The translations under genes were made by a program, and so were the position numbers. Below the pieces are notes generated by a model. That model searched no databases and had not been told where the DNA came from. It saw only the letters and a program-made list of their open reading frames with translations. From an uncultured Pseudomonadota bacterium (GTDB lineage: Bacteria; Pseudomonadota; Alphaproteobacteria; RF32; CAG-239), in assembly GCA_902785935.1 (NCBI GenBank), contig CADAAN010000006.1, forward strand, positions 4,309 through 68,308: 64,000 nt of DNA, written 5' to 3'. Of this stretch, positions 9,998-61,513 are shown piece by piece; position 1 is the first letter of the stretch; each line of letters opens with the position of its first letter.

Positions 9998-12169
9998 TTA
10001 TGCAGCTTTGGAAAGCTCTGATAAAACATCCTTTTTCAAGGTGACGTTATCAACCTTTCCGGTTGCGGACATCGGGATTTTATCCCGATAAATTATCTGG
10101 CGCGGCAGATAAAGCTCAGGATAGCCGTTTTGCTTGATAAATTCACGCAACATTTCGGTATTAAGCGTTTTTTCGTTGGTTACAACAACAATTTGCTCAC
10201 CTTTCTGTTCATGCGGTACGGCTACGACACCACAGCAAAAATCATCTCTACCGGAAAAAGCGCTGTTAATCATATTTTCAACCGCTTTTAATGAAATCAT
10301 CTCACCGCCGACCTTGGCAAAACGTTTGATACGGTCTTTGATCGTGATAAATCCGATTTCATCAATCTCAACAACATCACCTGTGTGATACCAACCGTTG
10401 TGCGGCGGTACCAAAACCCCCGGATTGTCGGCAAAAATATAACCCTTCATCACATTCGGCCCCTTGACCACAAGCTCACCGCCGCGTTCAATACCGTCTA
10501 CTTTTTCAAGACGACATTCCATTCCCGGACAGAGTTTGCCGATGGTGCCGAATTTATTAAATACCATGTTGTTGCCTGCAACAGCCGGAGAACATTCCGT
10601 CGTGCCATAGGCTTCCATCAGACGTGTGCCCAATCGCTCATTTAATAAATTGCGTGTATCAAGCTTGACGCCTTCTGCTCCCGCATAAACAAGCCTTAAT
10701 GACCCGAAATCAAGCGGATGCGAAATTTTGGCATAGCTTCTGAAGAATGTATCCGTACCAATCATCACTGTTGCACTTAATTCATAAAGCAAATCCGAAA
10801 TGACGCGAAAATGGAGCGGAGAGGGGTACAAAAAGACTTTTGCACCTTGATAAAGAGCATAAAGTGTGCCTAATACAAGCCCGAAACTGTGGAAAATCGG
10901 CATTGAATTTAAGACAATATCACGCTTGTTTAAGGTTTCAAAAGTCGCAATTTGCCATACGTTTGAAATCACGTTTTGATTTGACAATACAACGGCTTTC
11001 GGTGCACCTTCCGAGCCTGAGGTAAACAAAATAACGGCTGCATCGTCAGGGGTTGCTTTATATGGCACATATTTGACTTTGTATTGCAATAAGGCCAAAA
11101 TTTTTGCAAAAATCGAAACAGACCGTCCGACTTCTTCTAAAAAAATCACCTCAAATCCGGCATTTGTAATCGCTTCAGCCAGCGGTTCTAATCCCGCTTT
11201 TTTGATAAACATTTTTGATGTAATCACTTTTTTTGCCTGAACGGTTTTAAGCCCGCTTATTACATTCTGTGCACCGGCAGAAAAGTTAATCATGACAGGC
11301 ACTTGTCCATAGGCATTTAAGCCGAAAAATGTGCATATAGCCGCAACGGAATTCGGAAGCATCACGGCAACCGGCTCTTTCTTGTCCGAAATGAGAGAAA
11401 AATGACGCCCCAAAACATACGATGCAAGCATAATATCCTTAAAAGTTTTGGGTTTGCGCGTAATATCTTCCAAAACGTATGGACGACGCAGGCCAAAGCA
11501 TCTCTTTGCATGAATTTTTGAGGCTTTAATCAATTGTGTAAAGACCGTCATTTTTTTATCATAAATCGATTCAAACATTTGCTCACGCATAATCATGTAA
11601 ATTTCATTTGAAATGTGATTACGTTGATGCCTGAGCTCTGCCTTAAGCTTTAAGGGACGGGGTGCGTCAACAACAATTTTGACATGCGGAAAATAACGAT
11701 GCGGTAATTTTCCGCCTGTTTTTGAAAAATGGCAATACTGCAAGCCGTTAATCCAAATCGGTATGACGGGCGAATCCGTTTTATCGGCAAGAAGCCCCGC
11801 TGATTCATAAATCTTCATAATATTACCGTTGGTTGTCATACGTCCTTCCGGAAAAATGACGCAAAGGCGGCCGGAATTAACCGTTGAAATCAAATGCTTT
11901 AAGTCCGGTACGTCAATATTGTCATGTTTGACAACATCAGCCGTTTTTAAAAACAAACGTACCCAATAGTTGCGATAGAGTTGCCCGTGCAATGCAAAAA
12001 CCGGATTGCCGGGTAAAAACGCAAAAAGCACAATCGGATCAACCCATGATACGTGGTTTGAAATATATACGCCCTTTTTGGGAAGTTTATCAACGTCAAA
12101 ACGCATTTCAAAACGAACCTTAAAGGTCTTAAAAAAACATCTTAAAAGAAAGCGAACAATATCGCGCAT
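9998..12169 (-). CDS. aas: bifunctional 2-acylglycerophosphoethanolamine acyltransferase / acyl-ACP (AMP-forming) synthetase
   Basis: N-terminal PlsC motif NHVSWVDP and FPEGRMT; C-terminal AMP-binding motifs (FTSGSEGAPKAV, YGTTEC, TGDVVEIDEIGF); 723 aa. Confidence 0.8.
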   Translation of the reverse strand: MRDIVRFLLRCFFKTFKVRFEMRFDVDKLPKKGVYISNHVSWVDPIVLFAFLPGNPVFALHGQLYRNYWVRLFLKTADVVKHDNIDVPDLKHLISTVNSGRLCVIFPEGRMTTNGNIMKIYESAGLLADKTDSPVIPIWINGLQYCHFSKTGGKLPHRYFPHVKIVVDAPRPLKLKAELRHQRNHISNEIYMIMREQMFESIYDKKMTVFTQLIKASKIHAKRCFGLRRPYVLEDITRKPKTFKDIMLASYVLGRHFSLISDKKEPVAVMLPNSVAAICTFFGLNAYGQVPVMINFSAGAQNVISGLKTVQAKKVITSKMFIKKAGLEPLAEAITNAGFEVIFLEEVGRSVSIFAKILALLQYKVKYVPYKATPDDAAVILFTSGSEGAPKAVVLSNQNVISNVWQIATFETLNKRDIVLNSMPIFHSFGLVLGTLYALYQGAKVFLYPSPLHFRVISDLLYELSATVMIGTDTFFRSYAKISHPLDFGSLRLVYAGAEGVKLDTRNLLNERLGTRLMEAYGTTECSPAVAGNNMVFNKFGTIGKLCPGMECRLEKVDGIERGGELVVKGPNVMKGYIFADNPGVLVPPHNGWYHTGDVVEIDEIGFITIKDRIKRFAKVGGEMISLKAVENMINSAFSGRDDFCCGVVAVPHEQKGEQIVVVTNEKTLNTEMLREFIKQNGYPELYLPRQIIYRDKIPMSATGKVDNVTLKKDVLSELSKAA

Positions 12170-15957: not shown

Positions 15958-16074
15958 TTTCTTTTGATAAATAAACCCTCAAATTTTGAATGTCAAAGAA
16001 AAATCATCGTTTTTCAGATGTATTTTTAATTTTTTTGTTTGACTTTTATTTTAAAGTATGCCATAATCAAAAGC

Positions 16075-16236
16075 GTAACCAAAATGGTTATGGTGTTTAG
16101 ATAACACATTCGAGTTAAGGCTCCTTTGAAAGAGGAGTTGTTGATATAAGGCAATTTTTGCTCGAATAAGACAAACTGTAACTCGACAGTTATCTAGCTC
16201 CTCCATTTTGAGATTTTTCAAGATGGATTTTTTTTT
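16075..16236 (+). promoter_or_regulatory. type-1 conserved 5' leader (structured RNA with terminal attenuator hairpin) upstream of LRR gene
   Basis: Begins GTAACCAAAATGGTT 7 nt after promoter TTGACT-17-CATAAT (16039..16067); conserved boxes CTCCTT..AGGAG, GATATAAGG, TCGAATAAG, AGCTCCTCC; ends in hairpin ccattttg..caagatgg + T9. Confidence 0.7.
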
Positions 16237-16265
16237 CGATGGTTTAAAAAATAAGGAGAAAAAAT

Positions 16266-18404: not shown

Positions 18405-20579
18405 TTGAAAAACTTTGTGAGATTTTGTCTGCGTACGTTCTTTTATATCTTCAAGGTCAGATGCAACATCAAGTTTGACTTGAAGAAATTGCCTAAAAAA
18501 GGTGTTTATGTTTCAAACCACGTGTCTTATTTAGACCCGATTTTGCTCTTTGCCTTTTTGCCGGGCAATCCGATTTTTGCCTTAAACGGGCATTTGTATC
18601 GTCGAAGATTTATCCGTTTTTTGATGAAAACGGCTGATATTGTGGAATTTAATCCGATTGAACCGTCTGATTTGAAGGATTTAATCAATAAGGTGAACGA
18701 TAATCGTCTTGTGGTGATTTTTGCCGAAGGACGTATCACCGAAAGCGGCGGCTTGATGAAGATTTATGAGGCGCCGGGGCTTTTGGCGGACAAAACCAAT
18801 GCACCGATTATCCCGATTTGGATTGAAGGTCCGCAATATGGTTATTTTTCAAAGACAAAAGATAAATTGCCCCACAGACCGCTTCCTAAAATGCTGATTA
18901 CGGTCGGCAATCCGAAACCCTTAAAGCTTAAAGATGAGCTTCGTCGTCAGCGTGACCACTTAAGCAATGAAGTGTATCATATTTTGACGGATATGCAGTT
19001 TTCAATTACCTACAATCCGAATATTTCGATTTTTGCACAGCTTGTCAAAACATCTAAAGTATATTCAAAAACGGGCTTTTTCTTTAAACGTCCGATGGTG
19101 ATTGAAGATATTAACCGCAAACCGATGAGCTATAAGGATTTGTTGCTCCGTGTTTATTTACTCGGTAAGTTTTTTAAGAAAAAAGCCGCGCATATGGAGC
19201 ATGTCGGCTTGATGTTGCCGAATACAATCGCGGCTGCGGCAACGTTTTTGGGGTTATCCGCGTATGAGCGAATCCCTGTCATGCTGAACTTTTCAGTAGG
19301 TGCCAAAAACCTGATTTCAATGTGCAAAACAGCGGAAGTAAAGCTTGTGATTACGTCAATCGCCTTTATTAAAACGGCAAAAATGGAGCCGGTGATTGAA
19401 GTCTTAAAATCAAATGGTATCGAGGTCTTTTATCTTGAAAGTTTGGCTAAAAAATTAGGGATTATCAGCAAATTGGGTGCCATGCTTCGTTATAAAACAA
19501 AGCGTATCCCGCACCGTCACGGCGGCAACAGAAAAGCGGCTATTTTATTTACGTCAGGCTCTGAAGGTGCTCCGAAGGCCGTTGTTTTAAGCCATGCCAA
19601 CATTATCTCTAACATCAAACAAGTTACAACGGTCGAAACAATCAATATGAAGGATTTGGTCTTTAATGCCATGCCGATGTTCCACAGCTTCGGACTGACA
19701 ATCGGTACATTGTTCCCGCTTTTAGAGGGGGGCAGGGTGTTTTTGTATCCTTCGCCGTTGCATTATCGCGTGATTGCTGAATTGATTTATGAGCTGGGTG
19801 CGACAATTTTGTTCGGGACAGATACCTTTTTCAGAGGTTATGGACGAATCGCGCATCCGTACGATTTTTATAACGTTCGGTTTATGTATGCCGGTGCTGA
19901 GGCTGTTAAACTTGATACGCGTAATTTGTTTATGGAGCGGATGGGCGTGCGCATTATGGAAGCATACGGTGTGACGGAATGTGCGCCGTTTGTGGCAGCC
20001 AACAATCACGTTTACAGTCGATTCGGCTCAATCGGCAAAATTGTGCCGGGGATTGAGTATAAGTTAGAGCCTGTGCCCGGGATTGAAAAAGGCGGAGAGC
20101 TTGTCGTTAAAGGTCCGAATATTATGATGGGCTATATCATGCCTGATAAACCCGGGGTTTTGGTACCCTTAAAAGACGGCTGGTATCATACGGGTGATGT
20201 GGTTGAAATTGATGAAATCGGCTATGTCTTTATCAAAGACCGCATCAAACGCTTTGCTAAAATCGGCGGTGAGATGGTGTCCTTAAATGCCGTACAGGAT
20301 ATGGTTATCAAGGCTTATGAATGGATGGGGCCTGACTTTAGTTATGGTATTGTTTCCGTACCGCATGAAAGCAAGGGTGAGCAAATCGTCTTGGTCACGA
20401 ACAACAATCAGGTCAAACAGGAAGTTTTGCATGACTATATCAAAAACAATGGTATGTCTGAGCTGTTTTTGCCTCGAACCATCCTGTATCATGAAAAAAT
20501 TCCGGCCTTTTTGACAGGTAAAACCGATAACGTTACCTTGAAAAAAGAAGTGATGGAAGAATTGGGCTTAAATAAATAA
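18405..20579 (+). CDS. aas: bifunctional acyltransferase / acyl-ACP synthetase (Aas paralog)
   Basis: Paralog of 9998..12169 (same motifs NHVSYLDP, FAEGRIT, FTSGSEGAPKAV, TGDVVEIDEIGY); TTG start with GGAG RBS. Confidence 0.8.
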   Translation: MKNFVRFCLRTFFYIFKVRCNIKFDLKKLPKKGVYVSNHVSYLDPILLFAFLPGNPIFALNGHLYRRRFIRFLMKTADIVEFNPIEPSDLKDLINKVNDNRLVVIFAEGRITESGGLMKIYEAPGLLADKTNAPIIPIWIEGPQYGYFSKTKDKLPHRPLPKMLITVGNPKPLKLKDELRRQRDHLSNEVYHILTDMQFSITYNPNISIFAQLVKTSKVYSKTGFFFKRPMVIEDINRKPMSYKDLLLRVYLLGKFFKKKAAHMEHVGLMLPNTIAAAATFLGLSAYERIPVMLNFSVGAKNLISMCKTAEVKLVITSIAFIKTAKMEPVIEVLKSNGIEVFYLESLAKKLGIISKLGAMLRYKTKRIPHRHGGNRKAAILFTSGSEGAPKAVVLSHANIISNIKQVTTVETINMKDLVFNAMPMFHSFGLTIGTLFPLLEGGRVFLYPSPLHYRVIAELIYELGATILFGTDTFFRGYGRIAHPYDFYNVRFMYAGAEAVKLDTRNLFMERMGVRIMEAYGVTECAPFVAANNHVYSRFGSIGKIVPGIEYKLEPVPGIEKGGELVVKGPNIMMGYIMPDKPGVLVPLKDGWYHTGDVVEIDEIGYVFIKDRIKRFAKIGGEMVSLNAVQDMVIKAYEWMGPDFSYGIVSVPHESKGEQIVLVTNNNQVKQEVLHDYIKNNGMSELFLPRTILYHEKIPAFLTGKTDNVTLKKEVMEELGLNK

Positions 20580-21493: not shown

Positions 21494-21676
21494 ATTTTTT
21501 CTCCATTATGCAAAATAAAAAACCGTTTAAGATAAACCAAAAACGGAGGAGCTAAACGAACTGCACTAAATCAGTTAAGCTTATTCGAGGTATTAACCCT
21601 TATATCACTTACTCCTCTCTAAAGGAGTATATTTTTAGTGCAAGTGTCGTTTAAACACCGCAACCATTTTGGTTAC
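21494..21676 (-). promoter_or_regulatory. type-1 conserved 5' leader with terminator-like hairpin
   Basis: Minus-sense GTAACCAAAATGGTTGCGGTGTTTAAAC...GATATAAGG...CTCGAATAAG...AGCTCCTCCGTTTTTGGTT; promoter TTGACA-17-TTAAAT (21683..21711) puts TSS at the GTAACC; terminal hairpin ccgttt..aaacgg + T6. Confidence 0.7.
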
Positions 21677-21846
21677 GCTTTCATTTAAGCATATATCAAA
21701 ATACTTGTCAAGATGTTTTTAGCCTCTGTCACAATCGGCAACAAAATGTGCATTGATAATTGGGGCTAACGCGGCAATATCAGTTGATATATCTGAAAAT
21801 CATTTTATAATCAGCGTATGTTTTTGAACTTTGGAGAACTTTAAAT

Positions 21847-30540: not shown

Positions 30541-30828
30541 AATTTTTTCCCTTTTAAAGATGTTAATATAAAAAAGTTTAACCGCGCCTTTTTAAGTGCG
30601 GCGGGGAGTGAAGAAATCATGTAAACCTAAATGACTCTTGCAACCTTTAGAATAACTCTTGTACATCCTTTGCAAGCTCCCCAACCAAAACTTTGGGGAT
30701 AATCGGCATTTTATACAAAAACACCTTCAAAACAAACAGTGTTATCCGTCACTGAGGTTTACAAAAGCTTCTTCAAAGCTCCGCACCCAATACATAGGCA
30801 CTAAATGATAAGATTTCTCCCATCACTT
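30541..30828 (-). promoter_or_regulatory. type-2 conserved 5' leader (long structured RNA ending in attenuator hairpin)
   Basis: ~85% identical to 41674..41952 and 61231..61513; promoter TTGACA-17-TCTAAT (30836..30864); 3' end forms ccccgccgcac-ttaaaaa-ggcgcgg hairpin + T-rich run ~40 nt before ATG. Confidence 0.7.
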
Positions 30829-40815: not shown

Positions 40816-41673
40816 TTAGCGATACCGAATCGAAAAAGTGTTTGTCTTGCCTGCAACTTGATTGGCCTCATCGATGGTGTAAATGCGCTTTGGTGCGTAA
40901 TGTTGATTGTAAATATCATTTGGGGAACTGTAAAACCTTCCGTTATAATAATAACCTGTTGAGTATTTTTGATAAAATTTAATTTTATCGCCAATTTCTT
41001 CATCGTCTAAAAGAGCCTGACAACTGGCATTTGTGTCTTCGCAATAAATAGCCAAAGATTCTGACAATGCTTTATTTATGGAATTAGTAAGCATTTTTTT
41101 TGTAATCATGGTCGAACCGGATATGGTTAAAGATTTCAATTCCGTGCCGCCTAATGTCCAATCTTCATCTTCAAGAATAACATCTTTGGGTAATACAATA
41201 TCTTCAACTTTTGTACGATTAAAATTAGCCCCTCCGATAAAAGTCAGACTATTTGGTAAATTAATTTTTTCAAGTGATTGAGTATCATTAAAAGCACCAC
41301 CCGAAATCTTTTGAAGTCCTTCGGGTAAAACAGCCTCTCGCAAATCAAACAAATATTCAAAAGCAGAAGAACCAATTGATTTAAATATTTTATCACTTGA
41401 TTCGTTTTCGATAACGACTTTATAAATTTGTGAAGAATAGGCTCCCCAATCGGCTGTATTATGGCACCATGGGTCACAGCTGTGACTATAATTTTTCATA
41501 TCACCATAACCTTTAATGGTTAATGTATTCGTGTTTTTATCAAGTGTTGCTGTACAACTATCATTTGAGGTTGCCGCACAGTCAAATGTACAAATATCAC
41601 TGTTATCACAAAGTGTATCAGCATATGTATTAAAAGCCGTAAATATACAAAAAATATAAATTACTTTTCTCAT
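40816..41673 (-). CDS. secreted LRR-family protein with conserved C-terminal tail
   Basis: True start MRKVIYIFCIFTAFNTYA (signal peptide) at 41673 with GGAG RBS; track ORF extends spuriously into leader; C-terminus PKRIYTIDEANQVAGKTNTFSIRYR. Confidence 0.8.
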   Translation of the reverse strand: MRKVIYIFCIFTAFNTYADTLCDNSDICTFDCAATSNDSCTATLDKNTNTLTIKGYGDMKNYSHSCDPWCHNTADWGAYSSQIYKVVIENESSDKIFKSIGSSAFEYLFDLREAVLPEGLQKISGGAFNDTQSLEKINLPNSLTFIGGANFNRTKVEDIVLPKDVILEDEDWTLGGTELKSLTISGSTMITKKMLTNSINKALSESLAIYCEDTNASCQALLDDEEIGDKIKFYQKYSTGYYYNGRFYSSPNDIYNQHYAPKRIYTIDEANQVAGKTNTFSIRYR

Positions 41674-41952
41674 ATCTTTTCTCCAAAATTTATTAAACGA
41701 AAAAACCACTCTAAAATGAGCGGCGGGGAGTAAAAGAATCATGTAATGGAAAATGACTTCCGTAACCTTTAGGTCAAAACCTTGAACATACGCCACGGAC
41801 TCCCCAACCAAAATATCGGGGATAAGCATTGTTTTAAAATAAAAAAACAACACTAAAACAGCGTTATCTCTCACTGTCCATTACAAAAGCTCTTTTAAAG
41901 CCCCGCACCCTTTTCGGGTACTTGATAGAAAAAGCCAAAACCTTCCTATCTG
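41674..41952 (-). promoter_or_regulatory. type-2 conserved 5' leader with attenuator hairpin
   Basis: Promoter TTGACA-17-AATAAT (41959..41987); conserved blocks identical to other two copies; terminal hairpin ccgctc-atttta-gagtgg + T6. Confidence 0.7.
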
Positions 41953-45986: not shown

Positions 45987-46177
45987 AACTTTTCTCCTAT
46001 TTTTCTTATTTACACTGTTGAAAAAATCACTTCAGAAGATATCCGAAGTGGGAGCTAGAAAACTGTATACATTCAGTCAGACTTATTCGACATTTCAAAA
46101 CGCTTATATCATCTACTCCCGGTAAAAGGAGCGATATGTATAAGGTGTTTTCTAGACACCGCAACCATTTTGGTTAC
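45987..46177 (-). promoter_or_regulatory. type-1 conserved 5' leader with terminator-like hairpin
   Basis: Minus-sense GTAACCAAAATGGTTGCGGTGTCTAGAAAACAC...GATATAAGC...TCGAATAAG...AGCTCC; promoter TTGACA-17-GAAAAT at 46184..46212; terminal hairpin cacttcgga..tgaagtg + T6. Confidence 0.65.
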
Positions 46178-46353
46178 TTTTTTATTTTCACATAAAAAAC
46201 GTAGCTTGTCAAATAAATTTTGTAAAAAATATCTTTTTTTGCTTGAAAAATAAAACTTTAATGATAAATTGTGCTTGAAATTTAAATTAACCCCCGTGCG
46301 GGGAATCCGCACAGCTCTTTTCTTAAGAGTTTACTTTTTTATAAGGATACTAA

Positions 46354-52252: not shown

Positions 52253-52843
52253 TTAGTAGTCCCCTCTGATTACATGATAAAACCGACAGCTATCTAAACT
52301 TGTTTCACATGCCTGACAGCCCTCAATGATATCAGACATTTTGACCTCCGTAATACCTCCTGTAGGCCAATATATATCCTTACCGCCCACCTCTATCAAT
52401 CCGCCTGTCCACCATTCAACCGGGACGGCATTTTCCCATCCTGCAGAGGCAAAAGCAATACACGATTTTGAATCGGTGAAATGGATAACAAATTCACCCT
52501 GAACATATGAACCACCGCTATCATAAAAATCCATATTCAGCGTTCCTATCGGAAGTTTGCAAGCCTCGTCTCCATTAAGATCCGTTGTTACTTGACAATC
52601 CGGTAAAAGCCCGTATTGAATTAAATCTTCGGCATCACGAATCTCAATACCTTCTCCCCAGCCTTTTTGCTCCAACTCCATAAAGCGTTGAAGAATTTGA
52701 TTATATGTGTCAATTGTTTGATTCATTTTGTATTTAAACATTGCGGCAGAATAACCTTTGAGTGCGCCCGCCGACAACACACCGACAATAGCCAACACGC
52801 CCAGCATTTCAACCATACTTCTACCTATTTCATTAATTTTCAT
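52253..52843 (-). CDS. type IV pilin-like protein (prepilin N-terminus, Arg at +1)
   Basis: MKINEIG|RSMVEMLGVLAIVGVLSAGAL: short basic leader, Gly-1, Glu+5, hydrophobic alpha1 helix. Confidence 0.65.
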   Translation of the reverse strand: MKINEIGRSMVEMLGVLAIVGVLSAGALKGYSAAMFKYKMNQTIDTYNQILQRFMELEQKGWGEGIEIRDAEDLIQYGLLPDCQVTTDLNGDEACKLPIGTLNMDFYDSGGSYVQGEFVIHFTDSKSCIAFASAGWENAVPVEWWTGGLIEVGGKDIYWPTGGITEVKMSDIIEGCQACETSLDSCRFYHVIRGDY

Positions 52844-53036
52844 TGGTTATACCTTTCTTTCATAAAAAAAATTCCGTTTTATATAACCAAAAACGGAGGA
52901 GCTAACTAACTGCCATTGTACAGCTTGCTTTATTCGCGCATCACTAAAATACCTTATATCAGCAACTCCTCATCAAGGAGCTATACAATGGATGTGTTAG
53001 TTAAACACCGCAACCATTTTGGTTACATCCTGATTA
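52844..53036 (-). promoter_or_regulatory. type-1 conserved 5' leader with terminator-like hairpin
   Basis: Minus-sense GTAACCAAAATGGTTGCGGTGTTTAACTAACAC...CTCCTTGATGAGGAG...GATATAAGG...GCGAATAAAG...AGCTCCTCCGTTTTTGGTT; promoter TTGACT-17-AATAAT at 53043..53071; terminal hairpin ccgttt..aaacgg + T8. Confidence 0.7.
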
Positions 53037-53253
53037 TTTCATACAAAAGCATAAAAGTCAAATACTTTTTTGTACATACAAAAAAAATAAATTTTTTTTG
53101 TAACAAAGTACTTGCAAAATTAAAAAAAATGTATATCATATAAAAAAGTGATGCAGATGTTTTTGATTTTGTCTGCACTTTGTTTCTCATTTTAACGAAG
53201 ATTTTTTTAGTATTAACAAAAGCTGCAAGGCTTTGCTTTTAGGTGTTTAAGGT

Positions 53254-53811
53254 ATGAAAAAAAACAACAACAACAAATTTCGGAACAATAACAACAATAA
53301 TATGTACAATTTAAACTATCGTTTTGACAGTTTAAGCCCTGCGGGTAAATGTTGCGGAACGGCACTTGATTTGATTAAACGCTACAACGACCTTGCAAAA
53401 GAAGCAGGCCTTGGAGGAAATTATGTTGAGATGGAAGTTTTTCGTCAATATGCCGAACATTATCGTAAAATTGTGACTGAAATCAATGAGCGCAAAAACT
53501 TTAATCAAAATCAACAGCGTCTTAAAAATCAATCTCAAGAGCAAGATTTGCCTGAACAAGAAGCTCAAGAAGATCAAGTTCAATCAGAAGCACAAGAGAC
53601 ATCTGCTGATAATGAACCCTCTCAGGCACCTATTGCCGAGCCCAAAATTTTGGTTGCAAAACCTTTGTCGCTTAAAAAGAAAAAATTTGAAATTGTTGAA
53701 GTCAGCTCTTCTGATTTAGAACAAAAGCAAGAAGAAGCATCGAAGCCGAAGCGCACTGTCAAGCGCAAAGCAAAAAGTACCGAGCAGGCACAGGAAGTTG
53801 CCGCGGTATAA
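53254..53811 (+). CDS. DUF4167-domain protein
   Basis: Asn-rich N-terminus then LSPAGKCCGTALDLIKRYNDLAKEAG..VEMEVFRQYAEHYRK, an alphaproteobacterial conserved family. Confidence 0.55.
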   Translation: MKKNNNNKFRNNNNNNMYNLNYRFDSLSPAGKCCGTALDLIKRYNDLAKEAGLGGNYVEMEVFRQYAEHYRKIVTEINERKNFNQNQQRLKNQSQEQDLPEQEAQEDQVQSEAQETSADNEPSQAPIAEPKILVAKPLSLKKKKFEIVEVSSSDLEQKQEEASKPKRTVKRKAKSTEQAQEVAAV

Positions 53812-53817
53812 TTTGAT

Positions 53818-54954
53818 ATGAAGGAGAAAATGATGATTTTTTTTATCGGTATGACGATTCTCGTCTTGGCGGCAATTGCGGTTGTTTATAAAACACTGAC
53901 CGGATATATTGATTTTGCATGGTACACAAAGCTTTGTATTTTAGCATTTTTGTTTGTGTCGTGGTTTGCACCGATGTGGCTCAGATGGTTGCGCCACGGA
54001 CCTGATTTTTTGGGCGGGACTTTTTATGATGTTGCCTATAAAGCAGGCTATTTTTTGATGGGTTTTGTGCTGATTTTATCGATGCTTTTAATTGCACGTG
54101 ATATTATTTGGCAAATACTTTACCTGATTGTCAGAAAATCAGCGCTTAATCCGGACAACGCACATCATATCAATATTTTGAACTTTGTTACGATAGCTTT
54201 GGCTCTTGTTATTTCAGGATATGGTGTTTATGAGGCACACAAAACGCCTGTTGTGCAAAATTTGACCATCAAAGACGCACGTATCAGAGAAAAATTAAAA
54301 TTTGTAGCGGCATCTGATTTTCACATCAATCAGTCAACACCCGATTTTCATATCAAAAAAATGGTAGATGTTATCAACGCGCAAAATCCGGATTATATTT
54401 TGCTTGTTGGTGATATTGTTGACGATGACCCTGAATTTACGATCAAAAAATTTGAACAACTCAAAGATTTAAAAGCTCAAAAGATTTATATTTCACTAGG
54501 CAATCATGAGTATTATCACAGACCGTACGCTTGGATTATTGAGTTTGCAAAACTCGGCTTTGAAGTCTTGCAAAATTCGGGCGAAAAAATCAATGGCAGC
54601 GGTATTTATGTTGCTGGTGTGCCGGATGTCGGTTCAACAAATGTCAATTATGAGCGTGCATTTGCCGCATCTGATGAAGATAACTACAAAATTTTGCTGT
54701 CACACGCACCGACCGATTTTAAGGATTTGGATAAGTCAAAGTTAGATATTCAGCTTTCTGGACATACGCACGGCGGGCAAATTTTTCCGTTTCAATACAT
54801 CACCAAAAAAGCAAATGACGGTTATCTTGCCGGTCTTTATGATGAAAAAGATGCCAAAATTTATGTTATGAAGGGTACAGGTTATTGGGGACCTCCGATT
54901 CGTTTGATGTCCGAGCCTGACATTTTGGTCTTAAACTTAGAGCCTGAAGAATAA
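53818..54954 (+). CDS. membrane-anchored calcineurin-like metallophosphoesterase
   Basis: 4 N-terminal TM helices; GDIVDD, GNHEY, GHTHGGQ motifs. Confidence 0.8.
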   Translation: MKEKMMIFFIGMTILVLAAIAVVYKTLTGYIDFAWYTKLCILAFLFVSWFAPMWLRWLRHGPDFLGGTFYDVAYKAGYFLMGFVLILSMLLIARDIIWQILYLIVRKSALNPDNAHHINILNFVTIALALVISGYGVYEAHKTPVVQNLTIKDARIREKLKFVAASDFHINQSTPDFHIKKMVDVINAQNPDYILLVGDIVDDDPEFTIKKFEQLKDLKAQKIYISLGNHEYYHRPYAWIIEFAKLGFEVLQNSGEKINGSGIYVAGVPDVGSTNVNYERAFAASDEDNYKILLSHAPTDFKDLDKSKLDIQLSGHTHGGQIFPFQYITKKANDGYLAGLYDEKDAKIYVMKGTGYWGPPIRLMSEPDILVLNLEPEE

Positions 54955-55373
54955 TGTCATTTGATATCAAACAGGCCATGGATATTGCCTTAAATGAAGA
55001 TGTATCAACATCGCCTGACGGGGCTGTTTTGTATTCTGTCAGTTATCTTAAAACAACAAAAAACAGAGATGATGCGTACGCTTTTGTTCAAAAAAACAAA
55101 GATTGCAAAACACTTGATCATACGCCTTGCGGCAAAGCATTATGTGAAATGGATACTCGGAGAACAAACGACGTTTTACCAGAGGCCGTAAAAGAAGTTT
55201 GGAAAAAAGCATCTCAAAGATTTATTGCCTCCGCATCCGGCAACGTAACAGCTTTTGTTGATGGTGCCGATAAGAGAAGTACGTTTTGCAGCGTTGAAGT
55301 CCCTGCTATCCTAAAAAACAATAAAATCAAAACAATCAACGGTATTGATAAGTTTGAATTTTTGAATAAGTGA
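54954..55373 (+). CDS. hypothetical protein (translationally coupled, TAATG overlap with upstream phosphoesterase)
   Basis: ORF track; start overlaps upstream stop. Confidence 0.4.
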   Translation: MSFDIKQAMDIALNEDVSTSPDGAVLYSVSYLKTTKNRDDAYAFVQKNKDCKTLDHTPCGKALCEMDTRRTNDVLPEAVKEVWKKASQRFIASASGNVTAFVDGADKRSTFCSVEVPAILKNNKIKTINGIDKFEFLNK

Positions 55374-55490
55374 CAATATATTCATATTTTTTTAAGGCAA
55401 AACAATATTTTTTCTTGACAAACGGACAAAAGTGAAGTATAAGCTATTTTAATACAGTATACATATGTTTCACTTAAATTTATAATAATT

Positions 55491-56090
55491 ATGGAAAAGA
55501 TTAAATCTGCTGTCAATGAAGCAGCGTTTATTCAAAGCGCTGACAGAGAAACTGTCAAGGAGTACATCTCCAGACACCCCCTCCACATAGAAGCTGATAT
55601 CCAGCTCCTTGAACGTGGAGATAAGGAACTTATTAAGCTTTACATCTCGCAGTTTTGCTTTTTGAGCAAGGCTGAAATCAAGCTCATCGAGCTTAAAGAT
55701 AAGGAACTTATTAAGCTTTATATCTCTCGCTGCGGCTTTGAGGATGAGGCCAAAATCAAGTTCCTGGAGATGAAGGATGTGGAGCTGATTAAGTTTTATA
55801 TCTCGAAACGGCCGTTTTTCAAAGCGGACATTAAGTTCCTTGAGCTCGGAAACAAAGAACTTATCGAGCTTTACATCTCGAAGTACAGATTTGAGGCTGA
55901 AGCGGAAATCAAGCTCATCGAGCTTAAAGATAAGGAACTTATCAAGCTTTACATCAAAAATCATCGCCTGAGAGATGATGCTGAGATGAAGCTCCTCGAT
56001 CTGAAGGATATGGAGCTGATTAAGATGTATGCCTTATATCAAGGCTTTTCTGTAAGCACGCAGATAAACATCTGTGAACTTATTGTTTAG
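55491..56090 (+). CDS. tandem-repeat protein (6-7 x 26-aa ELIKLYIS..E.KLIELKDK repeats)
   Basis: 78-bp DNA tandem repeats from ~55600..56050; the antisense frame is also open because of the repeats, so strand is uncertain. Confidence 0.4.
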   Translation: MEKIKSAVNEAAFIQSADRETVKEYISRHPLHIEADIQLLERGDKELIKLYISQFCFLSKAEIKLIELKDKELIKLYISRCGFEDEAKIKFLEMKDVELIKFYISKRPFFKADIKFLELGNKELIELYISKYRFEAEAEIKLIELKDKELIKLYIKNHRLRDDAEMKLLDLKDMELIKMYALYQGFSVSTQINICELIV

Positions 56091-56206
56091 AATTTTCTCA
56101 TTTACAATGTCCCCGCTGCAGTAAAAAGCCGCGGGGATTTTTTTAACTGAAATTTATTCTTTTTATGCTTAAACTTGATGTATCTGAACTTTAAGGAGTC
56201 ATCATT

Positions 56207-56614
56207 ATGTATTTAGAACGATTTGTAAACAAAAAAGAATTTGATCAATATGTCAATATTGTGAAATTGGCAGATGATATTGATGAAGACCAAAATCCGC
56301 CTCTTCGACTTAGAAATGAGATGGAAAAGGCTTTTGATTATACCTCTTCTTTGCCGCAGGATTACAGTTTAAGCATCGGGCCTTGGGTTTTGTATGCGTT
56401 GCGAACGGATGAAGGCAAGCTTATCGGAACGATTTGTATCACCGAAGACGGGCATTTCGGCAAGTGGGCGCAAATTGAATATGTCTCAATCTTAAAAAGT
56501 TATCAGCATCAAGGTTGCGGGCGTTTTATGATGCAGGAAATATTCAAAAAAATCAAGCAACATTCCGACTTTGATTGCGCTGTTTTGACAACCGTGCAAA
56601 GCGGAAAAAATTAA
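56207..56614 (+). CDS. GNAT-family N-acetyltransferase-like protein
   Basis: YQHQGCGRFMMQEIFKKI resembles GNAT motif A (Q/RxxGxG). Confidence 0.45.
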   Translation: MYLERFVNKKEFDQYVNIVKLADDIDEDQNPPLRLRNEMEKAFDYTSSLPQDYSLSIGPWVLYALRTDEGKLIGTICITEDGHFGKWAQIEYVSILKSYQHQGCGRFMMQEIFKKIKQHSDFDCAVLTTVQSGKN

Positions 56615-56733
56615 GAAAAATGCGCCATGAATTATGCCGGAACAATCTCGTTTAACAATCGGTTGCGCCAATTTTATATTTGCAAAATATAAAAAAATAA
56701 CAAAAAATCTCTATTGTTTCAGATCCGCGCTGA

Positions 56734-57753
56734 TTATAAAAACACCTCATAGTCGTAATGATTTAAAATCGCATTTTTGAAAAACAGCACGTCATCTTCG
56801 CTGACAGGGGCAAAATGGTTGGCATCAACGCCGACATTAAGCCCGTTTTGGCTTACTTTTCTAAGGCCGTGAATATGCCCGAACAAGTTGAACATATCCT
56901 TTTTGCATTCGCTCGGCTTATGGGTTAAATAAACCGTATCGCCGTTTTTTAACGTCAGCGTGGTGTGCTCTAAAACGCTTTCAAAGCATTTTTCAAGCTC
57001 ATTATGCAATGCCGGATTTTCGCTTAAAGCATCGGTTTCGTAATTGCCCAAAATAAAATGAATCTTGCCGTGCAGATAAGGGCGCACACTCAAATTTCCG
57101 AAATCGCCCAAGTGATAAACCACGTCATCGGAAGCCACCTCATTGTTCCAATTTAAGATAAGCGCGGCGTCCATCTCTTTTGTGGTCGCAAACGGGCGGC
57201 GCGATAAATTCATCGCACGCTCGCTGCCAAAATGCGTGTCGGACGTAAAGAAAACGCGGCCGCCGGTTTTTAAGAGCGAGCGCACTTTTTCTAATGTTTC
57301 TTGATAGGTGTGATAAACATTGACATTTTCCGCTTGTAACCGCTTGATGATATAGCTTTTGCCGAAAAAAGCATCATCAATGCCGACAACAACCTGTTTT
57401 CTTGTGTGGTTATAATGGGTTTTTGCCATCCACTCTGCCAATTCAAAACGCGAGGTTTGCGCATAGTCGCGACCGGCGACATCGCTTTCCTTTGCAGGAA
57501 TCCAAAACATAATGACATCGGCAAGCGCCAAAAACTTACTTTCCCAATCAACCTGCATATCAAGGTTAAAATTCATCACATTTTCACGGCGCGGGTTGGC
57601 GACATAAACATCTAAATCCGCAAAATCTTTAACGGCTTGAGATTGCCAATCGGGCGCACCTTTAATGGGACCTGCCAAAAAGACGATTTTTTTATTAAAA
57701 TAATTTTGAACGGGCGATGTCGGCGTGATGAGTTCCATAATATTGTCCTTCAT
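56734..57753 (-). CDS. fusion protein: nucleoside 2-deoxyribosyltransferase-like (SLOG-type) N-domain + metallophosphoesterase C-domain
   Basis: N-terminus KKIVFLAGPIKGAPDWQ...ADVIMFWIP; C-terminus VFFTSDTHFG, VYHLGDFGN, GNYETD, GHIHG. Confidence 0.5.
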   Translation of the reverse strand: MKDNIMELITPTSPVQNYFNKKIVFLAGPIKGAPDWQSQAVKDFADLDVYVANPRRENVMNFNLDMQVDWESKFLALADVIMFWIPAKESDVAGRDYAQTSRFELAEWMAKTHYNHTRKQVVVGIDDAFFGKSYIIKRLQAENVNVYHTYQETLEKVRSLLKTGGRVFFTSDTHFGSERAMNLSRRPFATTKEMDAALILNWNNEVASDDVVYHLGDFGNLSVRPYLHGKIHFILGNYETDALSENPALHNELEKCFESVLEHTTLTLKNGDTVYLTHKPSECKKDMFNLFGHIHGLRKVSQNGLNVGVDANHFAPVSEDDVLFFKNAILNHYDYEVFL

Positions 57754-57920
57754 ATCTTAAAATCTCGCTTTATGAAAACAAAACAAGCCTTGCCTGTCAA
57801 CATAATTATTGACAGTTTGTGCAAAATTTCATATCATCTGAAAAAAAGGAAAACCTCATGAATTTGTAGAAATCACGAAAGACACCATTATTTATCCGAA
57901 AATTTTGGAGAAGATATAAA

Positions 57921-58523
57921 ATGAAAATGGAATATATCATTTTTGGAACAACTTACGGATTTGCCAGCACCGAAACAACTGATGAAGAACAACGCTATAT
58001 TGAGCAGTTTTATCATGATGATGAGGGAAAGAGAACGTACGTGCACAAAAGGCGCAACAACAAAGTTTATTACACACGCACAATTTACGGCGATAAACAA
58101 AACCGGTTTTGCGACTCGAAGGGACGTCCGGGTGGCTTTTTTGGCATGACCATCGGTTTTGACGGACAATATTGCCGCGATTTTAACAAAATCAATGCGC
58201 TGATGGACAGAGTTTATGAAAACTTTATAAAAAAAGGATTCATCACAGAAAAAAACGGCACACACCAATATCATATTGCTGATTTTCAAACATATAATGC
58301 GCAAATACACGAGATTATGGCAGATGCCGTACAGTATGCAAACTTAAGCTCTGCCGATTTGGAAAAATTTACCTTTCACGAGCTTAAAGGCACATATCGC
58401 TGTCACCCAAATGATATGCCTTCGCTCAACAAGGCGCTGATGGATATGCCATATCATATTGATATTTCAGAAAAATATCCGACTCAGGCTATGCTGCGTG
58501 AAAAATTATCAAAAGTTAAATAA
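57921..58523 (+). CDS. hypothetical protein
   Basis: ORF track only. Confidence 0.4.
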   Translation: MKMEYIIFGTTYGFASTETTDEEQRYIEQFYHDDEGKRTYVHKRRNNKVYYTRTIYGDKQNRFCDSKGRPGGFFGMTIGFDGQYCRDFNKINALMDRVYENFIKKGFITEKNGTHQYHIADFQTYNAQIHEIMADAVQYANLSSADLEKFTFHELKGTYRCHPNDMPSLNKALMDMPYHIDISEKYPTQAMLREKLSKVK

Positions 58524-58637
58524 TCGTCCAAATTCAGCCAAAGCAAAAAAAGTTGAAAAAAAACTAAAAAAAATATTGACAAAATAAAAAAAACGTGATA
58601 ACTTGAGGACAATAGAGTTCAATTTAGGAGAAAAAAA

Positions 58638-59234
58638 ATGAGTAAAATGAAAACAGCCGTTGTAACAGCACTAGTCACAGCTGCTGCTTTATTAGCCGCC
58701 AAAGGAGCTCAGGCTCAGACAAAAAGTGACGGCCCGCAAAGAGTGAATAAAGAAGCCACGGTCAATCAAAATAAAGCAAACGCTCAAGAGCTACTTAATG
58801 TAATGAATACGTTTTTGGGTAATCTTCCTGACATACATCACGATAATGGTGAAGTTTTAAAGCAAAGCGAATATGAGCTTACCGATTCCGGACTTTGGAG
58901 AACAGCAATGATTAATGTCGGTTCGTCTTATATATGCTTTTCAGATACTAGGGATGTTGATTATTCGAACCAGGAGGTGAGTATAACCATAGGTAATGAA
59001 GGTAGCAAGGACTACGTAGCCTATAGTGTCACGGATAATGGAATCAATAAGGTAGGATCTGAAGTACCTCTTTCAAACAAAAGCTATAATGAATTGGCAA
59101 GTATTATGGCAGGCTTTTTCAAGAGAGACGGACAAGATAAAACCCCTGAAGTTAAAGACTTCTGCTCAAATCACCAATCGACTTTGGATTTATCTCCTCT
59201 TCTCATAGCTAAGGCTTCGCAGAGAGGTAAGTAA
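58638..59234 (+). CDS. hypothetical secreted protein
   Basis: Signal peptide MSKMKTAVVTALVTAAALLAAKGAQA; RBS AGGAG upstream. Confidence 0.5.
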   Translation: MSKMKTAVVTALVTAAALLAAKGAQAQTKSDGPQRVNKEATVNQNKANAQELLNVMNTFLGNLPDIHHDNGEVLKQSEYELTDSGLWRTAMINVGSSYICFSDTRDVDYSNQEVSITIGNEGSKDYVAYSVTDNGINKVGSEVPLSNKSYNELASIMAGFFKRDGQDKTPEVKDFCSNHQSTLDLSPLLIAKASQRGK

Positions 59235-59399
59235 TTTCCCGCGCATAACGCAGAGATTTTTATCAAAAGCAACCCGCCGGCTATGCCGGCGGTTCTGCAT
59301 TAACGGCTAAAAGCCTTTACCACTTGCAGCCCCTAAACGGGGCTGTTTTGCGTCTGACAGACGCAATCTGTTACTTCCTACCCCTCTGAAAGCTGGTCT

Positions 59400-59770
59400 T
59401 CCCTTAGTTGTTGTGATATATAGTTTTGTATCTTTTGGCTATCTTTACCTACCATATCCACATAGTACCCTCGACACCAAAATTCTCGATTTCGATATTT
59501 GTACCGCATTTGACACCACTGCTCGTATATCATTACCTTTTAAGAATCCCATAAAACTGGTGGTATCTCTACTAAATGATGTATATGATCCGGATAAGCT
59601 TCTCCTTCTATAATATTTACTCCTTTCCAGCTACATAACTCTTTTAATATTTTTACTATCTCCAGTCTTTTACTTCCGTAAAATACTTTTCTTCTGTATT
59701 TCGGCGCAAATACGATATGGTATTTACAATTCCAGCTCGTATGTGCTATACTTTTTACGTCATTTTTCAT
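59400..59770 (-). pseudogene. tnpA: IS200/IS605-family tnpA (Y1 transposase) pseudogene
   Basis: N-terminal 76 aa MKNDVKSIAHTSWNCKYHIVFAPKYRRKVFY...DHIHHLVEIPP match IS200 TnpA; premature stop at 59540, the rest (..KGN..; RILVSRVL ~ FWCRGYYV) only in shifted frames; GC-rich subterminal hairpins 59276..59390. Confidence 0.75.
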
Positions 59771-59994
59771 GATTAAATTCCTTATGTTTCTTGTTGCGTC
59801 TGCCAGACACTTCTTTCTAACTTAAGGAATTTATTTTTTCCACCCCTCGCTATAAGCTCTTTCGAACTACCAGCCTTGCCGGTGCTTTTCACAATATAAA
59901 GAACCGCGGGTGAGGAAACCCGCGGCGGATTACAATGTAATGAATTTTTTTAAAGATCATAATAATTTTTGGCAAATCCCACTAAGCTTTGCGC

Positions 59995-60609
59995 TTAGTA
60001 GAATTTCCAAGAAACCGTTGCTTGTTCGGTGCATGTAGCTACAGCACCTGTACCCGAAGCTCCGCCCATCGGATAAGGTTTACCCTCATCAGCACCTAGT
60101 ACTTTACCTTTGGCATAATTTGTACCGGTAGAAGCTTCAATTTCTACACCGATAAAACCCGAACCGGCACCCGAACCAAAATCAGCCGTTGCAAGTGCAA
60201 TGCAAGCCTCCTTAGGTAATCCTTTGTAACTGATTACAAAGGCTGTTGGTTTTGCATCACCAGTAATTGCTGTATTGACAGCAGAAATTGTATTTGAAGT
60301 AGCCATAGCTTCTAAAATTTGAACACTTCCTTTAAATGGGTTTGTTAAAGCGGCAGGAGATGTACCCATTACAGGCGGAACAATTCCTAAACTGACAGCT
60401 TGTGTCGCCAAGCCGGCGTAGTTACCCTGCTGTCCATACATTGTTCGGATGTTTGTCACAAGCATTGTGATTTGTTCCATTGTCGTGTTGAGTTTGTGTT
60501 TGAACATCGCTTTTGAATAGCCTGCCAAACCGCCGGCTGACAAAACACCGATAATCGCCAAAACACCAAGCATTTCAACCATTGAACGACCATTTTGATT
60601 ATTCTTCAT
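59995..60609 (-). CDS. type IV pilin-like protein
   Basis: MKNNQNG|RSMVEMLGVLAIIGVLSAGGLAGYSKAMF; second gene of a two-pilin operon. Confidence 0.65.
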   Translation of the reverse strand: MKNNQNGRSMVEMLGVLAIIGVLSAGGLAGYSKAMFKHKLNTTMEQITMLVTNIRTMYGQQGNYAGLATQAVSLGIVPPVMGTSPAALTNPFKGSVQILEAMATSNTISAVNTAITGDAKPTAFVISYKGLPKEACIALATADFGSGAGSGFIGVEIEASTGTNYAKGKVLGADEGKPYPMGGASGTGAVATCTEQATVSWKFY

Positions 60610-60648
60610 TTTTTTATTCCTTTATTAAACTGTTAAAAACTTATATGA

Positions 60649-61230
60649 TTAATAGAACTTCCAAATGATTGTGTTTTTTGCACCTGCACAATCACTAACT
60701 GCATCAGCCATTTCATACGCTTTTCCCTCAGCACGTTTGTTTGCAATGCCTGTACCAATGACTATAGAAGATCCATCTGCTGAGGCTGCTGCAGTACCTG
60801 TTTTATCGGCTATAACACCTACAAAACCTGAACCTGCGCCTGAACCAAAGTCAGACGTTGCCAAAGCAATACAAGCTTCTGTTGGTAAACCATCAAAAGC
60901 GACTGTAAATGATTCATTGTTTGTACCTGTAGCAACAATATTAACATTACCCTTAAATGGGTTTGTAAGTGTGGCTCCACTACCCATAACAGCCGGAACA
61001 ACACCAAGACTTGATGCTTCTGTATTTGTTAATCCCGCATAATTTCCCTGTGTGCCGTACATTGTACGGATATTCGTCACAAGCATTGTGATTTGATCCA
61101 TGGTGGTATTGAGTTTGTGCTTGAACATGGCCTTTGAATAACCTGCCAAACCGCCGGCTGACAAAACACCGATGATGGCAAGTACGCCAAGCATTTCGAC
61201 CATACTACGGCCGTTTTCGTTATTTTTCAT
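60649..61230 (-). CDS. type IV pilin-like protein
   Basis: MKNNENG|RSMVEMLGVLAIIGVLSAGGLAGYSKAMF; N-terminal 60 aa nearly identical to 59995..60609. Confidence 0.65.
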   Translation of the reverse strand: MKNNENGRSMVEMLGVLAIIGVLSAGGLAGYSKAMFKHKLNTTMDQITMLVTNIRTMYGTQGNYAGLTNTEASSLGVVPAVMGSGATLTNPFKGNVNIVATGTNNESFTVAFDGLPTEACIALATSDFGSGAGSGFVGVIADKTGTAAASADGSSIVIGTGIANKRAEGKAYEMADAVSDCAGAKNTIIWKFY

Positions 61231-61513
61231 TTTTCAATTCCTTTTAAAAATTATTACGTAAAACCGCCCCTAAAAGAGCGGTCGGAGAGTTAAACAATCA
61301 TGGATTAGAAAATGACTCCGACAACCTTTAGATTAAAAATCCTGAACATTCGCTACCGGCTCCCCGACACTTTTCGGGGATAATGTGCTATATTTAAAAT
61401 AAAAAATAACACCACATCAATACAGTGTTATCCTCACTGTCTAATCCAAGAGTTGTTTAAAACTCCGCGCCCGTCTCAGGCACTTGATAGAAAAAGTCAC
61501 CTCTTTCTATCCG
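61231..61513 (-). promoter_or_regulatory. type-2 conserved 5' leader with attenuator hairpin
   Basis: Promoter TTGACA-17-TTAAAT (61520..61548) puts TSS at the leader 5' end; terminal hairpin ccgctc-ttttag-gggcgg + T-run ~35 nt before ATG. Confidence 0.7.

Follow-up and report, generated by a model that had tools for sequence, protein, structure and literature searches.

The window considered here, a stretch of 64,000 nucleotides from an uncultured alphaproteobacterium (GTDB lineage RF32; CAG-239; positions 4,309 to 68,308 of contig CADAAN010000006.1, assembly GCA_902785935.1), belongs to the rumen metagenome scaffold STEW19-1_SAMEA5383944, which is 89,354 bp long. Its minus strand has three genes for type IVb pilins, of the fold class of Bundlin, PilS and TcpA; most likely, they encode prepilins serving as structural subunits of a chromosomal type IVb pilus of their clade. 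A first-pass annotation had placed three type IV pilin genes at these very positions, with arginine as first residue of the mature protein (Arg+1). This is borne out by the layout of the N-terminus (Gly-1, Glu+5 and a helix), by Pfam, and by profile and fold matches to the PDB, and the class can now be drawn more narrowly. The genes are the following (a bar marks the expected cleavage site):

60649..61230, minus strand: pilin A, first gene of the tandem pair, a type IVb prepilin of 193 residues, MKNNENG|RSMVEML...
59995..60609, minus strand: pilin B, a prepilin of 204 residues, MKNNQNG|RSMVEML..., starting 39 nucleotides downstream of pilin A
52253..52843, minus strand: pilin 3 (gene 3), a divergent Cys-rich prepilin of 196 residues, MKINEIG|RSMVEML...

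Pilins A and B are probably co-transcribed. Ribosome-binding sites, promoters and terminators accompany the three open reading frames (ORFs), all of which are intact.

Identity of the three pilins

Pfam holds two families of type IVb pilins, Bundlin (PF05307) and PilS (PF08805), and the tandem pair matches both above the gathering score, pilin A with E-values of 7.8e-14 for PilS and 6.8e-13 for Bundlin, pilin B with 1e-13 for Bundlin and 7.6e-9 for PilS. When a profile of the tandem family (116 members) is compared with the PDB, it finds BfpA (1zwt, 9e-12), TcpA (1e-4) and PilS of S. Typhi (1e-4). Structure prediction, which the first-pass annotation had proposed, agrees for pilin A: its AlphaFold (AF2) model (predicted local distance difference test, pLDDT, 79; predicted template modelling score, pTM, 0.72) has an N-terminal helix of 53 residues (6-58) and an alpha-beta domain with a beta-sheet, which is the topology of the type IVb fold. 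The best 11 Foldseek matches of this model in the PDB are all type IVb pilins (CofA, PilS and TcpA), with template modelling (TM) scores of 0.44-0.65. Cys120 and Cys181 are invariant in the tandem family, which fits the disulfide expected of a pilin.

Pilin 3 reaches the same class by another route. In Pfam it has only a weak N_methyl match and no domain, and its AF2 model (pLDDT 89) displays a helix (14-60) and a sheet, with conserved Cys. What qualifies it as type IVb is the profile-profile link alone: comparison of its family with the tandem family (hhalign) gives a probability of 100% and an E-value of 3.9e-40 over 167 columns, including the globular domain. On sequence grounds, pilin 3 is thus a divergent Cys-rich paralog of the tandem type.

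Aligned on the canonical G|FTLIELMIVVAIIGILAA layout, all three proteins have Gly-1, Arg+1 and Glu+5. The tandem pair begins with MKNN(E/Q)NG|RSMVEMLGVLAIIGVLSAGGLAGY, pilin A reading MKNNENG|RSMVEMLGVLAIIGVLSAGGLAGY, and pilin 3 begins with MKINEIG|RSMVEMLGVLAIVGVLSAGALKGY; the motif MKNN(E/Q)NG, given at first to all three genes, is therefore right for the tandem pair, while the leader of pilin 3 differs slightly. Each leader (MKNNENG|, MKNNQNG| and MKINEIG|) is short, positively charged and ends in Gly-1, and Glu+5 is followed by a hydrophobic stretch of about 20 residues, RSMVE(+5)MLGVLAIIGVLSAGGLAGY, invariant across the family. Counted from the G|R site, the mature proteins have 186 (pilin A), 197 (pilin B) and 189 residues (pilin 3), within the type IVb range of about 180-200. 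A six-frame motif scan of the window retrieves the N-terminal motif at the three pilin genes only.

The tandem paralogs were described by the first-pass annotation as nearly identical in their N-terminal halves and divergent in the rest, which is indeed so: pilins A and B are 95% identical over their first 66 residues and 46% identical over the remainder, and the DNA repeat families D2 and D3 give the same picture of conserved 5' and divergent 3' parts. The 'variable-region arrangement' seen in this pattern does not stand, since what we have is the usual build of a pilin, in which the alpha1 helix is conserved and the globular domain varies, under purifying selection. Over the first 66 codons the two genes differ at 31, with 28 synonymous and 3 non-synonymous differences (Nei-Gojobori dN 0.048, dS 1.67 and saturated, dN/dS about 0.03); over the rest of the genes, dN is 0.36 and dS 1.39. 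With dS saturated, the duplication is old. To judge from these substitutions, the N-terminal half is kept by purifying selection on the protein, not by recombination.

Arginine at position +1 and the assembly operon of relatives

Pilins characterised so far carry, to our knowledge, Phe, Met, Leu, Val or Trp at position +1, and the site reads G|W in PilS and PilV of IncI plasmids, as seen directly. Instead of such a hydrophobic or aromatic, N-methylated residue, the three genes and their relatives have Arg. Unusual as it is with respect to all characterised pilins, Arg+1 is the rule within the family. Homologs of the tandem type number 5119 at E<=1e-3 in a 90%-clustered collection and 5901 among 50% representatives, and all family matches that bear a name are uncultured Alphaproteobacteria from gut or rumen samples. 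Arg+1 is present in 120/120 close homologs, in 136/137 diverse representatives (the exception being Gln) and in 76/76 pilins linked to an assembly operon. The family of pilin 3 has 151 homologs, with Arg+1 in 117/117 full-length members, three more being truncated at the N-terminus. Gly-1 is invariant in 120/120 homologs of the tandem type, where it opens a run of 32 consecutive near-invariant positions, up to +31 (30 strictly invariant and two at 119/120 in these 120 closest homologs). Arg+1 is therefore no local oddity; it is found throughout a family of several thousand clustered sequences. Leaders are short as well. With Gly-1 included, they have 7 residues in the window genes, 7-8 residues in 115/120 homologs and about 10-13 residues in operon-linked pilins.

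The machinery expected to go with such pilins is absent from the window. A Pfam survey of ORFs of at least 120 residues recovers no T2SSE, T2SSF, secretin or Peptidase_A24 domain there, in agreement with the first-pass annotation, which had reported no pilus or gsp assembly genes in these 64 kb; the next 10 kb upstream on the contig hold no assembly gene, and past the window the contig stops after about 700 bp. Relatives do have it. A distant homolog of pilin 3, P0233, sits in a full operon made of TcpQ, a secretin, PAP_PilO, one further protein, T2SSE, T2SSF and four pilins, all of which read G|RSMIEMLGVLAIIGVLS. In relatives the order is that of a TcpQ/PilL lipoprotein, PilN secretin, PilO, a PilP-like protein, PilQ-type ATPase, PilR (T2SSF), pilins and, usually, a PilT-like ATPase, the operons of other lineages adding the PilP-like protein and a closing ATPase of 320 residues. 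VirB11 was considered as the identity of this last protein and rejected (PilT 5.6e-31 vs VirB11 1.8e-13). Its PilT-like nature suggests that the pilus is retracted. The operon is found with G|R pilins at loci L006/L007, L017-L026 and L148, and more than 3000 sequences related to its assembly ATPase, at 60-90% identity, occur in metagenome-assembled genomes (MAGs) of Alphaproteobacteria. It is collinear with pilL-pilS of IncI plasmids (R64 type), with an ATPase about 30% identical to IncI PilQ and 39% identical to the best plasmid match, from a Methylorubrum megaplasmid.

To follow the spread of the operon, one genome per GTDB species was scanned with the T2SSF peptides MGTFDMQ and NLIKVTEG. 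Relatives of T2SSF appeared in 164 species, including Proteobacteria bacterium CAG:495, Candidatus Scatocola faecipullorum and MAGs labelled 'Alphaproteobacteria', 'Azospirillaceae' or 'Rhodospirillales'. Pilins were counted at the loci of the best 80 of these 164 species, and the lineage of the window may be one of the other 84. Right after T2SSF, 57 of the 80 loci have between one and four G|R pilins, 76 in total; in the other 23, and in a further MAG (L109), no class III pilin lies within 10 kb of the operon. The machines of these pilin-less loci must use pilins encoded elsewhere. It is further observed that, in other MAGs, pilins of the window type stand singly or in tandem amid housekeeping genes, as in gyrB-pilin-nth or fabZ-pilin-tolQ, with at least nine such genes in a single MAG (locus tags IJ830). 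Given such dispersed pilins and operons that lack their own, the orphan layout of the window is ordinary for the clade, and we infer that the operon of this very genome lies on another contig. The first-pass annotation had allowed that its genes might lose their singularity, should they turn out to be ordinary pseudopilins of a locus elsewhere, with Arg+1 common in the clade. Much of this proved true, with Arg+1 universal in the family and a type IVb operon in relatives; the pseudopilin part did not.

Several loci of relatives deserve mention for what surrounds the operon. Just upstream of the pilin-less operon of L109 (606-3731, plus strand), and in that lineage only, a protein of 1041 residues starts in the manner of a pilin (G|RTMTEILGVLAIMG) and could be a tip adhesin or a minor pilin of giant size. 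At L017 (12825-13376), the operon encodes a pilin-like protein with an ordinary transmembrane (TM) anchor and no G|R site. Type IV secretion genes flank the operon in some cases: TrbC/VirB2 paralogs in L017-L026 and L148, and VirB4 as well in L017-L026. In the IJ830 MAG (L003/L004, 1-3250), a VirB10 (TrbI) protein of 1400 residues and VirB11 are encoded 6-8 kb from orphan pilins. Pilus and type IV secretion system (T4SS) may be functionally linked.

Neither the motif strings nor the subject of type IVb pili in RF32 or gut Alphaproteobacteria yielded any relevant paper in searches of the literature. The novelty lies in a +1 position that is invariably Arg and comes after a short leader, in operons to which no peptidase gene is linked, in a multigene family that is dispersed, and in the leader RNAs.

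Leader RNAs shared with LRR genes, and genomic surroundings

The pilin genes had been noted at the outset to share leader types with neighbouring leucine-rich repeat (LRR) genes, and this is confirmed: two types of structured leader are common to both kinds of gene. Within the window, the elements are:

52862..53029, minus strand: type 1 leader of pilin 3, covariance-model match of 156 bits, ending in a terminator-like hairpin and T-run at 52896-52864
53061-53033, minus strand: promoter-like TTGACT-17-GAAATAAT ahead of the type 1 leader of pilin 3
16072-16237 (plus strand), 21512-21679 (minus strand) and 46017-46180 (minus strand): other type 1 copies, all upstream of LRR_5 genes
61231..61495, minus strand: type 2 leader of the tandem pilins, aligning with the LRR leaders at 76% mean column identity
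About 61548-61517, minus strand: promoter-like TTGACA-17-TAAATAAT, read by eye, ahead of the type 2 leader of the tandem pair
30541-30810 and 41675-41945, both minus strand: other type 2 copies, leaders of LRR genes
59903..59926, minus strand: terminator-like GC-rich hairpin 3' of pilin B, from a consensus scan, nine pairs of which seven are G-C

The type 1 leader, of about 166 nucleotides, follows a promoter of the TTGAC type and ends in a hairpin and T-run, that is, in an intrinsic terminator. It precedes pilin 3 and the LRR_5 genes at 16266, 21493 and 45986. Its single-stranded blocks GA(U/A)AUAAG, CGAAUAAG, CUG..CAGUU and GCUCC are invariant and its stems covary: over 43 copies, 97.3% of the cells are paired, with compensatory changes in 16 of the 31 pairs. 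When partners are slid with respect to one another, as a control, 36-50% of the cells are paired, and no shuffle equals the observed values. A pattern made of its 20-base core retrieved 34 distinct copies in JGI metagenome contigs (L112-L145). Among these, 27 have a readable downstream ORF, and about 25 precede Cys-rich surface proteins with a Sec signal, similar to the LRR_5 genes of the window (as judged by eye); the remaining contexts are one degenerate pilin-LRR chimera and one unrelated ORF of 70 residues. The chimera is on JGI contig Ga0256405_10035212 (L122, about 944-1585, plus strand), where the leader is followed by an ORF with a degenerate pilin-like N-terminus (MKYKNESGQSMAEMLGILASV...) that continues as an LRR-like protein. 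The covariance model recovered eight more copies at loci of other species (L012 14929-15092, L017 21048-21215, L027, L028, L041, L043, L049 and L075). There, the leader mostly precedes a protein of 74-83 residues that resembles a helix-turn-helix (HTH) regulator of the XRE type (L012 15113-15337, L017 21239-21472, L027, L028, L043, L049 and L075). It is possible that the type 1 RNA had this setting ancestrally, or that RNA and protein are partners.

The type 2 leader is longer, about 230-260 nucleotides, and stands ahead of the tandem pair and of two LRR genes, at 30540 and about 41675. RNAalifold, run on the three copies, proposes 77 pairs, 23 of them with compensatory changes. Further copies are found in the IJ830 MAG, upstream of an LRR_5 gene (L003/L004, about 3340-3590), at L012/L013 (about 1860-2000, minus strand) and at L082 (about 18630-18730). 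For the LRR_5 gene at 40816-41874 (minus strand), the start given by mechanical ORF calling, GTG 41874, falls inside the type 2 leader, and the real start is most likely an ATG near 41675. Against Rfam 15, the window yields two tRNAs only at the gathering threshold, and both leader types, searched at E<=10, give only matches at chance level. Type 1 and type 2 leaders are thus candidate new families of cis-regulatory RNA. Since pilin and LRR genes have these leaders in common, they are probably co-regulated as one surface repertoire, the means of which would be transcription attenuation.

As for the surroundings, Pfam identifies housekeeping genes in the window, five LRR_5 genes of the BspA type and a small integrase/AbiEi island; IleRS, GAPDH and PGK were recognised by eye only. 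Directly downstream of the tandem pair lies a truncated ORF for a Y1 transposase of the IS200/IS605 type (59540-59770, minus strand, 76 residues, PF01797). Window positions 1-9600 form an island of low GC content (0.30) with a tyrosine integrase, an AbiEi antitoxin-like regulator, a pentapeptide/HTH protein, a glycosyltransferase and an ATP-grasp enzyme, and the contig upstream of the window (L146, 1-10000) codes for BrxC/BrxD, TerB, a helicase and an ankyrin-repeat protein; together they are probably a defence or mobile island. The ORF at 55491-56090 (plus strand) contains four copies of a repeat of about 134 nucleotides, spaced alternately by 78 and 153 nucleotides, in a protein with the repeated motif ELIKLYIS and no Pfam family. 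Two paralogous acyltransferase/AMP-binding fusions (Aas-like, 723-724 residues), at 9998-12169 (minus strand) and 18405-20579 (plus strand), are in opposite orientation about 6 kb apart, with very similar N-termini.

A probable type IVb pilus and its alternatives

We propose that the clade, which comprises uncultured Alphaproteobacteria of gut and rumen including CAG:495, Candidatus Scatocola and MAGs labelled 'Azospirillaceae' or 'Rhodospirillales', is characterised by a chromosomal type IVb pilus. A prepilin peptidase encoded elsewhere would cut the short leader after Gly-1, leaving Arg as first mature residue. The first 35 residues or so, nearly invariant, would serve as the interface common to peptidase, platform and filament core, so that many paralogs could feed one machine. 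The pilus would be assembled by the PilL/N/O/P/Q/R proteins and, in most lineages, retracted by the PilT-like ATPase. Divergent C-terminal globular domains would make the exposed surface and give it alternative adhesive or antigenic properties, adhesion or aggregation being the likeliest function. The pilin genes are scattered amid housekeeping genes, each with a promoter of its own and with a structured leader RNA of a type that BspA-type LRR surface-protein genes have too.

To be sure, a number of observations weigh against the idea that the three genes specify subunits of such a pilus. Some 75 kb of this contig were surveyed without an assembly gene coming to light, and the operon was not found in this genome. 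Pilins linked to the operon in other species belong to a slightly different N-terminal subtype, SVGGI(A/S)GYSKAMAKFK as compared with SAGGLAGYSKAMFKHKLN in the window, the two differing after residue 18. Type IVb pilins are defined by a long leader of about 15-30 residues (PMC3927602), a textbook definition that Arg+1 and a leader of 6-7 residues do not match. The N_methyl and TIGR02532 models leave the tandem pair just under their cut-offs, and the globular domain of pilin 3 has no significant fold match in the PDB despite a confident model. A further difficulty is the prepilin peptidase. Precomputed Pfam annotation shows no Peptidase_A24 among the called genes around the operon loci, a GxGDxK regular expression gave no match, and a crude scan of about 110 loci (about 2 Mb, including 10 kb around the operon in 80 species loci) revealed no small multi-TM ORF with GxGD. 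Canonical type IVb operons encode their own peptidase, so that its absence from the operon here is a real difference.

Some of these points invite other explanations. The proteins might be left unprocessed and unpolymerised, their pilin-like helix anchoring them in the membrane as proteins of the surface or periplasm, or the genes might be decaying relics of a lost pilus; the lack of assembly genes within about 75 kb, the peptidase that was not seen and the atypical Arg+1 go in this direction, as do the operon protein of L017, with a TM anchor and no G|R site, and the degenerate N-terminus fused to an LRR-like protein in L122. Yet the motif for cleavage and assembly is under extreme purifying selection (dN/dS about 0.03; 32 near-invariant positions in 120 homologs), the ORFs are intact and equipped with ribosome-binding sites, promoters and terminators, the same motif marks the pilins that come right after T2SSF in 57 species, and 23 of 80 operons need pilins from elsewhere, all of which makes anchors or relics distinctly unlikely. 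Still less probable, in our opinion, are pseudopilins of a type II secretion system (T2SS), which would form a short periplasmic endopilus pushing out secreted proteins, with no surface pilus. The class III signal is common to both kinds of protein, some homologs are named 'type II secretion system protein' or 'pseudopilin PulG', and the GspG and GspH models of NCBIfam match weakly, but at 12.2 bits for a cut-off of 88.85 (GspG) and 14.2 bits for a cut-off of 80 (GspH), whereas fold and profile match type IVb pilins only. The linked machinery has the type IVb markers TcpQ, PAP_PilO and PilP, with no GspC, L, M or D-N0 among Pfam matches on operon genes, and many divergent paralogs with variable exposed domains would be ill-suited to a secretion piston. 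Antigenic variation as in Neisseria, with variable C-terminal cassettes brought by gene conversion into a single expressed pilin locus, seems equally remote. It would account for several paralogs per genome with near-identical 5' and divergent 3' halves, and a transposase fragment of the IS200/IS605 type adjoins the tandem pair; however, every copy is complete, with start codon, ribosome-binding site and leader peptide, and the repeat search detected no cassette, inverton or recombination repeats around the pilin genes. Recent conversion, for its part, was rejected: it would have homogenised the 5' halves, where 28 synonymous differences in 66 codons and a saturated dS are observed.

A more serious alternative retains type IVb pilins and gives them another task, mainly that of stabilising mating pairs for type IV secretion or conjugation, as does the thin pilus of R64, adhesion to host or feed being secondary. 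The collinearity of the operon with pilL-pilS of R64 speaks for it, together with TrbC/VirB2 next to the operon in L017-L026 and L148, VirB4 in L017-L026 and VirB10/VirB11 at 6-8 kb from the pilins in L003/L004, and the best plasmid match is typed MPF_I. Against this, the system is chromosomal and conserved over 164 species, its ATPase is only about 30% identical to IncI PilQ, it has neither PilV shufflon adhesin nor rci recombinase, and its pilins share leaders with BspA-type LRR proteins, which points to a repertoire for surface interaction. We consider that role rather unlikely on balance, and retain that of a pilus meant in the first place for adhesion or aggregation.

Comparison with known systems shows how the traits of several of them are combined here. 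With the thin pilus of IncI1/R64, the clade shares the gene order PilL/TcpQ, PilN, PilO, PilP, PilQ, PilR, PilS; the tandem pilins of the window pass the Pfam PilS model, and in neither system is the +1 residue Phe (G|W in PilS and PilV of the R64 type). The differences are that the genes are chromosomal and not plasmid-borne, that the ATPase is about 30% identical, that Arg replaces Trp at +1, that many pilin genes lie outside the operon, and that the operon lacks the PilT lytic transglycosylase, the PilU peptidase, the PilV tip adhesin, the shufflon and Rci, with a PilT-family ATPase instead. In the IncI reference plasmid, pilU is disrupted. The bundle-forming pilus (BFP) of enteropathogenic Escherichia coli (EPEC) provides the best sequence match among solved structures (BfpA, 1zwt, E 9e-12), as well as the Pfam Bundlin match, and its assembly ATPase BfpD and PilT-like ATPase BfpF have counterparts in the operon of the window's relatives. 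BFP is encoded by a plasmid operon of 14 genes, including its own peptidase BfpP, and BfpA has Leu+1 and a longer leader; here we have scattered paralogs and no operon-linked peptidase. TcpA of V. cholerae and CofA of enterotoxigenic E. coli (ETEC) resemble the model of pilin A (TM 0.5-0.65; 8uhf, 9iuf, 3s0t), with a TcpQ-family protein in the operon and mature lengths of about 186-197 residues. Those pilins have Met+1 and leaders of 25-30 residues, and their operons encode a peptidase (TcpJ, CofP) and a large minor pilin (TcpB, CofB), while the present family has leaders of about 6-13 residues, Arg+1, and a giant G|R pilin-like protein in one lineage only (L109). Neisseria pilE/pilS also has many pilin copies per genome, with conserved 5' and variable 3' parts. 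The pilS copies are silent, promoterless and 5'-truncated, and act by gene conversion; every copy here is complete and anciently diverged at synonymous sites. The pseudopilins of T2SS (GspG-K) share the class III signal peptide, Gly-1 and Glu+5, and differ by fold class and machinery, GspG and GspH scores being far under their cut-offs.

It is tempting to go further and to suggest, as a tentative proposal that is possible rather than probable, that Arg+1 pilins mark a branch of the type IVb pilins in which both maturation and the chemistry of the filament are altered. Their peptidase would either have its gene away from the operon or be specialised for G|R, and the guanidinium of Arg1 would pair with Glu5 in the filament core, replacing the N-methylated amine or acting besides it. 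In the same proposal, pilin paralogs and BspA-type LRR proteins would constitute one variable surface repertoire, switched by two undescribed classes of leader RNA that behave as ligand- or protein-binding attenuators.

Most of what is known of type IVb pili comes from enteric pathogens and IncI plasmids. In the present case they are a conserved chromosomal trait of a large group of uncultured commensal Alphaproteobacteria of gut and rumen, where thousands of pilin variants accompany the type IVb machine of the clade. With Arg+1, a short leader and an invariant N-terminus of about 35 residues, this family is a natural experiment on what the prepilin peptidase, N-methylation and the filament core need. 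Scattered, individually regulated pilin paralogs, which share their leader RNAs with LRR adhesin-like genes, are a tractable model of surface variation in a host-associated bacterium.

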